Source: Euglena gracilis (lineage: Eukaryota). From it: a stretch of DNA of 64,000 nucleotides. This document shows, piece by piece, positions 19,998 to 22,900 of this stretch; position 1 is the stretch's first letter, and each line of letters opens with the position of its first letter. The notes below the pieces were generated by a model that made no database searches, was not told where the DNA came from, and saw only the letters and a program-made list of their open reading frames with translations. The stretch spans positions 19,454,642 to 19,518,641 of the forward strand of contig CP154954.1 in NCBI GenBank assembly GCA_039621445.1, given 5' to 3'. A program made the translations under genes and the position numbers.

Positions 19998-22900
19998 CCT
20001 CAGGCAGCCGTGGCCTCGCCTCCTCCTCTCCAGGCCACCCCGTATGGCTTGTCTTCCGAGCCCTCTCGCCGGGTAGCCGCCGGGCCCCCACCGATGAGCC
20101 GCGCCGAGGCCCTGACCCTGAGCCCCTCCGCCGCCCGGTACGGGCTGCTGGAGGCACGCTGCTCCTGCGGCTTCCTCCACCCCATCGCCATCTCCAAGCT
20201 CGGCATTGCGCCGTACTGCCCCGCCCACTTTCCTGTCGCTTGTATTTGGACCCCACATGTTGACTCCTCTCTTGGGAGTTCATTCATACCGTGTATATCA
20301 CATTCAAATTGTAAGAGGAGCTTTCCACGCCTGGCATTTCGCAGCGTCAAGAGGTCTTAAATTTAGGGGATCTGATGTTTCAACTTTTGTAAGGTAATCC
20401 CCCCCTAATAGAAGCGTGGGGCTGCTACAAGCGCAGTGTCCAAATAAAAGCGCACCCACTGCCGCCGAAGGTGGCAGTCCGCTACGCGCACCCATCCACT
20501 TTGATGGAATTTCCAAGAGGAAATCAACAAAAATCGCGCAGGTAGGGTTTAAATAGAGGAGCACCCCCGCCGCTGGAGGCGGCGGTTCTATATACGCACC
20601 CGCGCTCCTTTTATGGAAGGTTTAAGGGCTCTTTTTTGGAGGGGATTACATGGGGGGATTATTGGGTTTGGGGGCGGGGGGGGCGGTGGTGTATTCATTC
20701 TCCTGCCAATGAAAAGCGGAAGCATGAATGAAAGGCTGAACGGGGTGAACGCAGTCGTGCAGCCCATGCCAGGGAGGTGCCAGCCAACAAGCGTGCCGCC
20801 ACCAGCATCCCATCGCTGCCCTCCACTATGGAAGCTGCCCCAGCCAGAGACTCCCTGTCCAACCTGCTGTTTTTTTTTGAATTTTGGGTCTCAGCAAAAG
20901 TCCTCAGAGGTTTCCAATATACCACGATGACGCACCCCGCATAATCTTTGGACAAGCTCCTTTCTTTGGCAAAATCGCTGATGCTTCTCCCCCATCCAAA
21001 GGTGACCACCAATTAAAAAAAAGGGGATGCTCCCAACGCTTGTTTCTTTTGAGGTCATTGTGTGGAAAGCAATCACTCTTCGGACAGAAACCGACTCTAT
21101 GATGACCTGGATTTGTTCGTATTCTTCTTTCCCCCGCCAGCACACGTGGTTTTGTAGACGCTCTCTGTGTTCTTCAATTTCCCATACTCTCACTGCAACA
21201 GCTTTCTGATCCTGGCACGCTGGTTCAATGTCTGTGTCTGTTTCTGTTTTTGTTTAGCAGTGCATTGCTTCCCCAATCCTGCCTTCTGGGAAGAAGTGGG
21301 GGGCAGGCTGAATTCTAAGGCGGTGCCAACCCCACCCCAGGGGGGTGGGTGCCTGCCTGGGCAGGCACTCCAAGGCACCCAGATCCGATCCCCCCCCCAG
21401 GGGTAAGGGCCAAAAGTGCACTCGCCCAAGGCACTCCCAGCGCCGGAAGCCCAGAAACAGCCATTTTGGGGCACTTTTTTGGCCCACGGCCAGGCAGGCA
21501 CCGACCCCCCCCCCCCCAGGGGGTTGTGCCTGCCTGCCCAGGCACTGCGGGGCACTCTGAGACCCCCCTCCCCCCCTGGGGTTGGTCAAATCCAGTCTGC
21601 TAAAAGGTTTTTTGTCCACACACTCGCCCTCCTTGTGAAGCCTCTCCTGACTGGGGGGTTCCTTGCCTGCGGTGCCTTCTCGGCCGCCCACAACTGCGGA
21701 AGAGGAATTGCGGCAGGACACAGAAACGTACCTTGAGGAGGCCAGCGCTTCCCTGCCATTCATATTCAGTGTTCAAGAACTTCTCTTGACGGTCAATGTT
21801 TCTTCAATTTTTCAAACGTGTGCATCTTACACTTTGGAATGCTCCCCTCCCTTTGCACTGACCCTAATTTCCGTTTCCAACTGTTATGTATAAACTGTAT
21901 ACATTAATGTATAAATTAAAATGTACAAATTCCCAACATGGAGAGGCATAACAGAATGGTGCTCCGGCCGTCTCAAACTTCAAAAATTTGCTTCCATCAT
22001 TGCTCTGACCCTGGAATGCGCCAAACGCCATATCCGGGCACAGTTTTGATTCATCCAGGCGTGACCCAAAATGCATGGGTTTCAGGCCAAAAACGAGAGG
22101 CCGGGGGGGGGGGTCGAAACACGCCCATTTTCGGCTCAAAAACAGTTCTACCGGGTGCAGGAGGCCCACACAAGATGGCTCTGGCCAAAAAAACTGTCGA
22201 TTTTTTTGTTTGGGCCCCCCGGACCCATCAATTTTGTCGCCTGAACGCGTTTCAGAGGTCCAGTCGGGCTGCATTTCGTCCGCGCTCAGGATGGGCAGGT
22301 CCGCCTCCGTTGCCCCGCGGCGGCCGGGGACCGCTGGGCCCGTCCCCCGCCCCCCTCCCCGGCTCTGCCCGCTCGCCCAGGCCGCCCCGCAACGTGGCCA
22401 GGGTTTTTTTTTTTTTAGTCTTTGACCCCCTTGAATTGGTGGGGACCCCCTTGTCTAGTCTTGGGGGGGAGGGGAAGGGTGGGTGGGTCCCGCCAAGCCC
22501 CCGTCCCCCCCCCGGGGGGAGATCCCCCCAGGGGGGAGGGGAAAGGTGGTATTTTTAGCATTTTCGCGATTTTTGACCATTTTCGGGGAAAAAGTGGGGG
22601 GCCAGGGGGTGGGTGGGTGGGGTGACCCCCCTCCCCCCCGGTCTTAAAAAAATCCCCTGAACGTGGCCTTCGTGGAGGTGAGCCGCACGCTGACCTCCAT
22701 CACCCAGCCGCCGCCCCCTCCAGCCACCCGGGGTCCTTTGCACTCCTATCTGCCACCAGTGACGATGAACCGCCTCGTGCCTCTTCGCCGCAGCTCCTGA
22801 AGCTTGCTCATCTTTTTCTGCGCTATTGACCACCAAACAAGCACCAAATGCACTCACAGCAAAGTACCTCCCCCCCCCCCTTGTCTAAGCACCACCCTTG

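Follow-up and report, generated by a model that had tools for sequence, protein, structure and literature searches.

A transposon-like insertion in a coding exon of Euglena gracilis, probably spliced out with one copy of its target-site duplication as a non-conventional intron

Introduction

The non-conventional introns of euglenids follow a code, 5'-N3CDG...CH'GN5-6|R, which was set genetically by knock-in mutagenesis (Nomura et al., 2025; PMC12501133). In the same work the origin of these introns is treated as unclear, and elements resembling MITEs (miniature inverted-repeat transposable elements) are merely suggested as a source. A MITE origin had been proposed by Milanowski et al. (2014; PMC3935182) and is repeated in a 2024 review (PMC11282704), which depicts terminal inverted repeats (TIRs) with CAG and CTG together with junction repeats resembling target-site duplications (TSDs), and according to which non-conventional introns leave later than the conventional ones, as circular RNA of full length. 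In Euglena agilis ACOI 323, intron 4 of gapC is strain-specific, has eight-nucleotide direct repeats and was interpreted as recently gained (Milanowski et al., 2016; PMC4770533); eight nucleotides is the sole junction-repeat length stated in the available part of the related literature. The present study concerns a 64,000 nt stretch of Euglena gracilis DNA (assembly GCA_039621445.1, contig CP154954.1, positions 19,454,642 to 19,518,641, forward strand), referred to as the window, in which a MITE-like element interrupts a coding exon.

This locus is an unusually clean case of a known kind of intron, in that the intron, the element family, the TSD and the mRNA product are found together. The site had been picked out in an earlier, sequence-only reading, and the letters quoted there are present where that reading had placed them.

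A transposon-like element probably removed as a non-conventional intron

The 269 nt segment at 22396..22664 (+), consisting of the element and one copy of its TSD, is a euglenid non-conventional intron and is absent from the mature mRNA at the protein level. The evidence comes from a transcript-derived product of the host gene. The translation of the first RNA piece (20094-20219) was used as the query against a large protein collection, and among 29 candidates the sole match was a 266 aa protein, P0001, with 100% identity over the 42 aa query. Its source name is EG_transcript_22857, which we take to denote a Euglena gracilis transcriptome. P0001 was placed on the window by tblastn and an exhaustive junction search. 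It covers the part of the host gene at 20094..25474 (+) in nine exon pieces: exons 1 to 3 at 20094-20220, 20784-20841 and 21671-21739, exon part 4a at 22342..22395, exon part 4b at 22665..22704, and exons 5 to 8 at 24007-24074, 24283-24425, 24947-25082 and 25372-25474, all on the plus strand. Spliced at these inferred borders, the window agrees with P0001 at 260 of 266 residues and the frame is intact through all nine exons. The six differences, at residues 132, 137, 150, 188, 203 and 230, include none in exons 1-4.

Residues 86-117 of P0001 are encoded by 22342-22395 and then directly by 22665-22704. Part 4a (54 nt) encodes (E) and 18 residues, part 4b (40 nt) 13 residues and (Q), and the interrupted exon is thus about 94 nt long, spanning approximately 22342-22704 around the intron. 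At the protein level, the mRNA lacks exactly the 269 nt that make up the element and one TSD copy. Retention of the intron would truncate the protein, because 269 is not a multiple of three and the frame entering the element runs into a stop codon at 22556-22558 (open reading frame, ORF, 21920..22558).

The junction can slide over 22391-22400, giving 10 registers that are equivalent in nucleotide sequence and compatible with the frame. Their ends are AA..TG, AC..GA, CG..AA, GT..AC, TG..CG, GG..GT, GC..TG, CC..GG, CA..GC and AG..CC, and none of the 10 is GT-AG or GC-AG. A spliceosomal introner, removed at GT/GC-AG borders, was considered and rejected, as no such register exists. The code-fitting register is GGC-CAG...CTG-AACGT/G, in which CAG occupies +4..+6 after a 3 nt spacer (GGC-CAG at 22396-22401) and CTG is followed by a 5 nt spacer and a purine exon base (CTG-AACGT/G at 22657-22665). 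The intron fits the published code at every tested position. The sequence-only reading had drawn the same register, AACGT[ggcCAG...CTGaacgt]GGCC, and its proposal that the element is an intron removed by a non-conventional route is upheld by the code fit and by P0001. The intron ends can also pair, CAGGG with CCCUG and U7 with A7, at -13.8 kcal/mol compared with a mean of -8.8 for shuffled 3' ends, a value reached by 8 of 200 shuffles.

Public reads were compared over 15001-35000, and the results given here are among the 15 of 485 joints and 24 of approximately 87,000 pieces listed; runs X1-X19 are presumed to be RNA, as a guess, and X20 is a DNA run. RNA-run contigs in X1 (depth 42.1) and X3 (depth 47.7) have piece ends that match the exon ends 20841, 24425 and about 24946, so that the transcript spans the insertion site. 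An X20 DNA contig (depth 32.5, with single-copy depth at about 35-38) extends at least 8 nt into the right end of the element, as inferred from a from_end value of 94 at 22745, which suggests that the element is present in the X20 data set too.

A further RNA contig piece of the host transcript lies at 20033-20220. This contig begins two letters before 20033, just after a pyrimidine tract and AG, and the 5' end of the mRNA may be marked at 20033/20034 by a spliced-leader trans-splice acceptor. In the P0001 frame, ATG occurs first at 20094.

The element and its family

The element (22399..22659, +) is 261 bp long, non-coding and rich in G/C tracts. Its 5' end is CAGGG(T)13AGTCTTTGACCCCC and its 3' end GGTCTTAAAAAAATCCCCTG, giving the general inverted form CAGGG(T)n...(A)nTCCCCTG. 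The TIRs, CAGGGTTTTTTTTT at 22399..22412 (+) and AAAAAAATCCCCTG at 22646..22659 (+), are 14 nt long and 86% complementary (10/12 in the terminal-complementarity scan); the left one is the source of the CAG of the splicing code and the right one of its CTG. As had been claimed from the sequence, a perfect TSD surrounds the element, with exact copies of AACGTGGC at 22391..22398 and 22660..22667 (8/8, or 9 nt with a chance next C on both sides). In the left copy the first 5 nt are exon and the last 3 nt form the N3 spacer of the intron, and in the right copy the first 5 nt form the N5 spacer and the last 3 nt are exon.

When the element was compared with the window by BLAST, partial matches appeared at 48117-48332, 49272-49518 and 40217-40385. 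Complete family copies lie at 48112..48407 (+), with an 8 bp repeat matching at 7/8 (TTGGGGGG/TTGGGGGC), and at 49267..49542 (+), with the perfect repeat GCCCCGTT (8/8). The likeness of the element to these two had been noted before and is confirmed, in that they share terminal and internal blocks and have 8 bp repeats of their own. A related copy at 40184..40455 (+), CAGGCTTC...GAAGCCTG, also has a perfect repeat, ATCCAGCT (8/8). The four complete copies thus have like termini, and each has a different flanking repeat. The TSD length is 8 bp in all four (8/8, 8/8, 8/8 and 7/8), which is the fixed length characteristic of MITEs; three close copies and one related copy within 64 kb, at lengths of 261-296 bp, are likewise in keeping with a short multi-copy MITE. 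When the four are aligned, terminal and internal blocks are conserved, mean column identity is 60% and the differences are largely indels in homopolymer tracts.

The window was also scanned for CAG...CTG pairs spaced 40-2500 nt apart with eight identical flanking bases. Six were observed, compared with a mean of 1.2 (SD 1.0) in 30 first-order Markov resamples. A second scan (repeat at least 7/8, termini at least 9/12 complementary) again found six, whereas 40 resamples averaged 0.33 and never exceeded 2, and four of these six are the four-copy family. A transposon-like insertion with a TSD at 22399-22659 is solidly established.

The perfect-repeat pairs at 36488-37848, 38349-39012 and 51959-53298 were rejected as transposon insertions on the grounds that they have no family resemblance; at the 51959 pair, flank similarity additionally extends past 8 bp. 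Around this pair, at 51956-53303, excision between the perfect 8 bp repeats CCGGGGAG joins an open coiled-coil-like frame, and the origin of this possible intron may lie in an internal duplication, not in a transposon. Another MITE-like candidate lies at 5142-5590, with termini CAGGGTGTTGCT and AGCAACGTCCTG (10/12 complementary) and flanks GTTCAGAC/GTGCAGAC (7/8). As a probe of the intronic setting earlier proposed for the 48112 and 49267 copies, an exon-like ORF near the latter (49701-49907) was used, and it had no match in either protein collection. Among the TSDs at 22391-22398, 40176-40183, 48104-48111 and 49259-49266, position 6, which is the first exon base and for which the code wants a purine, is G in 4/4, and position 3 is C in 3/4. 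In so tiny a sample (n=4), this bias could reflect either target preference or survivorship of spliceable insertions.

Proposed origin and age of the intron

Very probably, a hAT-like MITE inserted into the coding exon of about 94 nt and is spliced out, with one TSD copy, as a non-conventional intron. In the mechanism proposed, a non-autonomous DNA transposon (a MITE, hAT-like in its 8 bp TSD and CAGGG termini) would have inserted into an exon of Euglena gracilis. The insertion would be tolerated in that the element termini supply the pairing CAG (5') and CTG (3') of the splicing system, and the spacers would come from the TSD, N3 being the last 3 nt of the left copy and N5 the first 5 nt of the right one. 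With cutting 3 nt ahead of CAG and 5 nt past CTG, the element and one TSD copy (269 nt) would then be taken out and the pre-insertion frame restored. Because 3 + 5 = 8, the length of the TSD, excision from RNA would remove exactly what insertion had added to the DNA. The mechanism supposes that the transcript comes from the element-carrying allele, and its steps of transposition and of enzymatic excision are likewise putative. The element should be spliceable in either orientation, because its inverted termini would again present N3-CAG...CTG-N5; at this site the purine rule would hold in reverse as well, because position 3 of the TSD is C. As regards the family, hAT elements are marked by an 8 bp duplication and CAGNG-type termini, and the 8 bp TSDs and CAGGG/CAGGC termini of the copies in the window agree with this.

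A recent gain of the 22396-22664 intron is plausible, because it is the sole intron of 10 compared to have an intact flanking repeat (8/8); the other nine have 2-4/8, approximately the chance level. The perfect 8 bp repeat dates the event weakly, since the absence of change in eight sites bounds divergence, at 95%, below approximately 0.37 per site. Its nearest relatives among the copies in the window have diverged and contain many indels.

It is put forward tentatively that the code, in placing its cuts 3 nt ahead of CAG and 5 nt past CTG, reproduces in RNA the geometry with which a hAT-like MITE lineage (CAG...CTG termini, 8 bp duplication) inserts. If so, any new exon insertion of such an element, in either orientation, would leave no scar in the mRNA, starting with the first generation. 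That most Euglena introns are non-conventional and 'slidable' would be accounted for in this way, and the excision machinery would recognize transposon ends and may itself be transposon-derived.

Several observations weigh against a hAT-like MITE spliced from the transcript. The fold of the whole intron is no better than that of shuffles (z -1.09, 26/200), and its minimum-energy structure pairs the flanks via a GGCC palindrome, not the termini. Among the ORFs listed for the window none stood out as transposase-like, no search aimed at transposases having been made there. The term hAT-like refers to repeat length and terminal letters, compared with a consensus taken from general knowledge. The presence of the element in the transcribed allele depends on a single from_end value, whose margin is about 2 nt. 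Evidence on the mRNA is at the protein level, the joint 22395>22665 being neither shown nor excluded by the 15 of 485 joints listed, among which it does not appear, and P0001 comes from an allele or strain in which 6 of 266 residues are not those of the window.

Alternative explanations

These last points bear on the strongest of the alternatives, an empty-allele artefact, according to which P0001 would derive from an insertion-free allele or strain and the window allele would be disrupted and unspliced, its transcript being degraded. The residue differences do indicate that P0001 and the window are not of identical haplotype. X20 has at least two of the P0001 variants, 24331 T>C, in a separate half-depth contig (18.1), and 24996 A>C. 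Where the window has A at 24996, the sets X1, X3 and X20 have C, which yields the K203N change found in P0001, and single-base differences between the window and the public read sets are seen at 24996, 24331, 20835, 22745 and 22751. Because of these differences and the half-depth contig, which suggests heterozygosity, several haplotypes or strains of the locus exist. P0001 is an allele or strain variant of this locus and not a distant paralogue, because at least two of its differences also occur in X20 genomic contigs that are collinear with the introns of the window. An artefact also sits well with the lack of a nucleotide-level joint for the site among those listed. However, the element fits an experimentally defined code at every tested position, an X20 DNA contig of near-full depth (32.5 versus about 35-38) reaches into its right end, and the frame of the window haplotype is intact across nine exons. 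An empty-allele artefact is therefore considered unlikely.

Intron gain by double-strand-break repair with filler DNA, and with no transposition, is more improbable still. The 8 nt junction repeat of the E. agilis gapC intron has been interpreted in this way (PMC4770533), but the insert described here belongs to a family with conserved inverted termini, and within 64 kb its three other copies are flanked by 8 bp repeats that differ from copy to copy, which is the signature of a transposase's staggered cut and not of random filler. On this family evidence, transposition is favoured over break repair.

Hardly tenable at all is the model of the sequence-only reading, a 28 nt exon with a spliceosomal acceptor and donor that the element splits into micro-exons of 15 and 13 nt; it is contradicted for the P0001 isoform, whose coding sequence is unbroken over 22342-22381 and again over 22677-22704. 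The strings on which it was built do exist, CCCAG/G at 22377-22381, preceded by a pyrimidine-rich tract, and GAG/GTGAGC at 22675-22683. In the P0001 mRNA, however, they are exon sequence and not splice sites: part 4a includes CAG/G at 22378-22381, part 4b includes GTGAGC at 22678-22683, and P0001 reads through the supposed donor, with FVE followed directly by VSRTL. The joins proposed at 22380/22381 and 22677/22678 are accordingly not borne out, and none of 11 introns in two genes is GT-AG. The element was also said to lie between a canonical acceptor and a strong canonical donor, but the flanking introns, 21740-22341 and 22705-24006, are both non-GT-AG. There are no micro-exons here, and coordination of spliceosomal and non-conventional splicing has no evidence at this site. 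The same reading held that its account would fail if the 28 nt sequence were missing from mature mRNA; the sequence is represented in P0001, as residues PPRNVAFVE.

Neighbouring introns and other features of the window

The 11 introns examined are the eight from P0001 and three in an upstream gene for a trypsin-like protease, and GT-AG borders occur in none of them. N3-CAG is present in 8 of 10 introns and the full code is fitted by 5 of 10. The upstream non-conventional intron of the host gene (21740..22341, +) is 602 nt long, with the ends GGC-CAG...CTG-GGCCC/G and flanks matching at 3/8. The downstream intron (22705..24006, +; 1302 nt) is non-GT-AG and lies outside the CAG/CTG code; its ends pair strongly (-32.1 kcal/mol, reached by none of 200 shuffles).

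The trypsin-like serine protease gene lies at 15435-19581 (+), with a Pfam Trypsin match (E 1.8e-4) on ORF 15435-16088. Its three non-conventional introns are confirmed by the joints 16015>16666, 16758>17447 and 17561>17912, which occur both in raw RNA reads and in the contigs of two RNA-run sets; the DNA run contains none of them.

P0001 has no Pfam family, and the protein of its gene has a coiled-coil-looking continuation. Its only homologues of similar length are itself and P0002. The latter, a genomic ORF that comes from an assembly contig and reads through exon 7, was set aside as uninformative on the insertion site. Over 24900-54300 (+) there are many short ORF segments whose translations are heptad-like and rich in Q, E, L, A and R, for example at 26.2, 31.9, 33.1, 34.0, 38.1, 40.0, 41.5, 43.8, 45.5, 49.8, 51.3 and 53.9 kb. 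They suggest that a single, very long coiled-coil gene or a tandem family carries on from P0001.

Extremely abundant repeats occupy 26340-31675, where the summed contig word depth in X20 reaches about 1e6, compared with about 35-40 for single-copy sequence. Rearrangement-like joints are numerous within this block, which is enclosed by the long run of coiled-coil-like exons. Long microsatellites of the (CA)n/(GT)n type are located at 18990-19095, 35900-36320, 42100-42520 and 50900-51150, where the ORF translations show runs of the HTHT.../CVCV... kind and where repeats were skipped in the read comparison.

Comparison with known systems

Elements of the hAT type such as Ac/Ds have an 8 bp duplication and CAGGG-type termini, and Ds is reportedly spliced as an intron in maize. 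The Euglena element resembles them in its 8 bp TSD, in family termini starting CAGGG/CAGGC and in being a short non-autonomous derivative. It differs in that the letters of its target sites have no obvious match to the hAT preference, and neither a transposase nor an autonomous partner was seen, no search aimed at them having been made. In a literature search outside supplements and subscription journals, no paper naming a transposon family for Euglena non-conventional introns was found, nor was the relation 3 + 5 = 8 between spacers and TSD found stated.

The introners of Micromonas, dinoflagellates and others are also MITE-like, with TIRs and TSDs, and become introns upon insertion, their splice signal being partly the element's and partly that of the duplication (PMC11282704). 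The removal of introners is spliceosomal and takes place at GT/GC-AG or adapted sites, whereas the Euglena element has no GT-AG register and uses the CAG/CTG code. In E. agilis, gapC intron 4 is likewise non-conventional, with an 8 nt direct repeat at its junction and a recent-gain reading (PMC4770533). That intron is polymorphic among strains and was attributed to break repair, whereas membership of an inverted-repeat family is demonstrated here.

A close match is that with the euglenid non-conventional introns of Nomura et al. (2025; PMC12501133), which are non-GT-AG, have CAG at +4..+6, CTG at -8..-6 and a downstream purine (G), and show paired ends and 'slidable' junction repeats. In contrast to the introns described in the available part of that paper, the CAG and CTG are here visibly the tips of the inverted repeats of a multi-copy transposon, and N3 and N5 are visibly the two halves of an intact 8 bp TSD. 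The relation 3 + 5 = 8 ties the spacers of an experimentally defined code to the TSD length, and with it the MITE hypothesis becomes testable genome-wide and at the bench.

The locus shares with the proposal of a MITE origin the inverted repeats at the ends of the intron, the TSD-like junction repeats and the lineage-specific positions (PMC3935182; PMC11282704). According to the original proposal, the identification of transposable elements in euglenid genomes had not been achieved at that time (PMC3935182), whereas in the current study an intron is found together with nearby relatives that are not defined by being introns. The MITE idea had previously rested on inverted repeats and junction repeats alone. 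The present locus supports it by uniting a multi-copy inverted-repeat element, an intact 8 bp TSD, a position within a coding exon and a seamless mRNA product.

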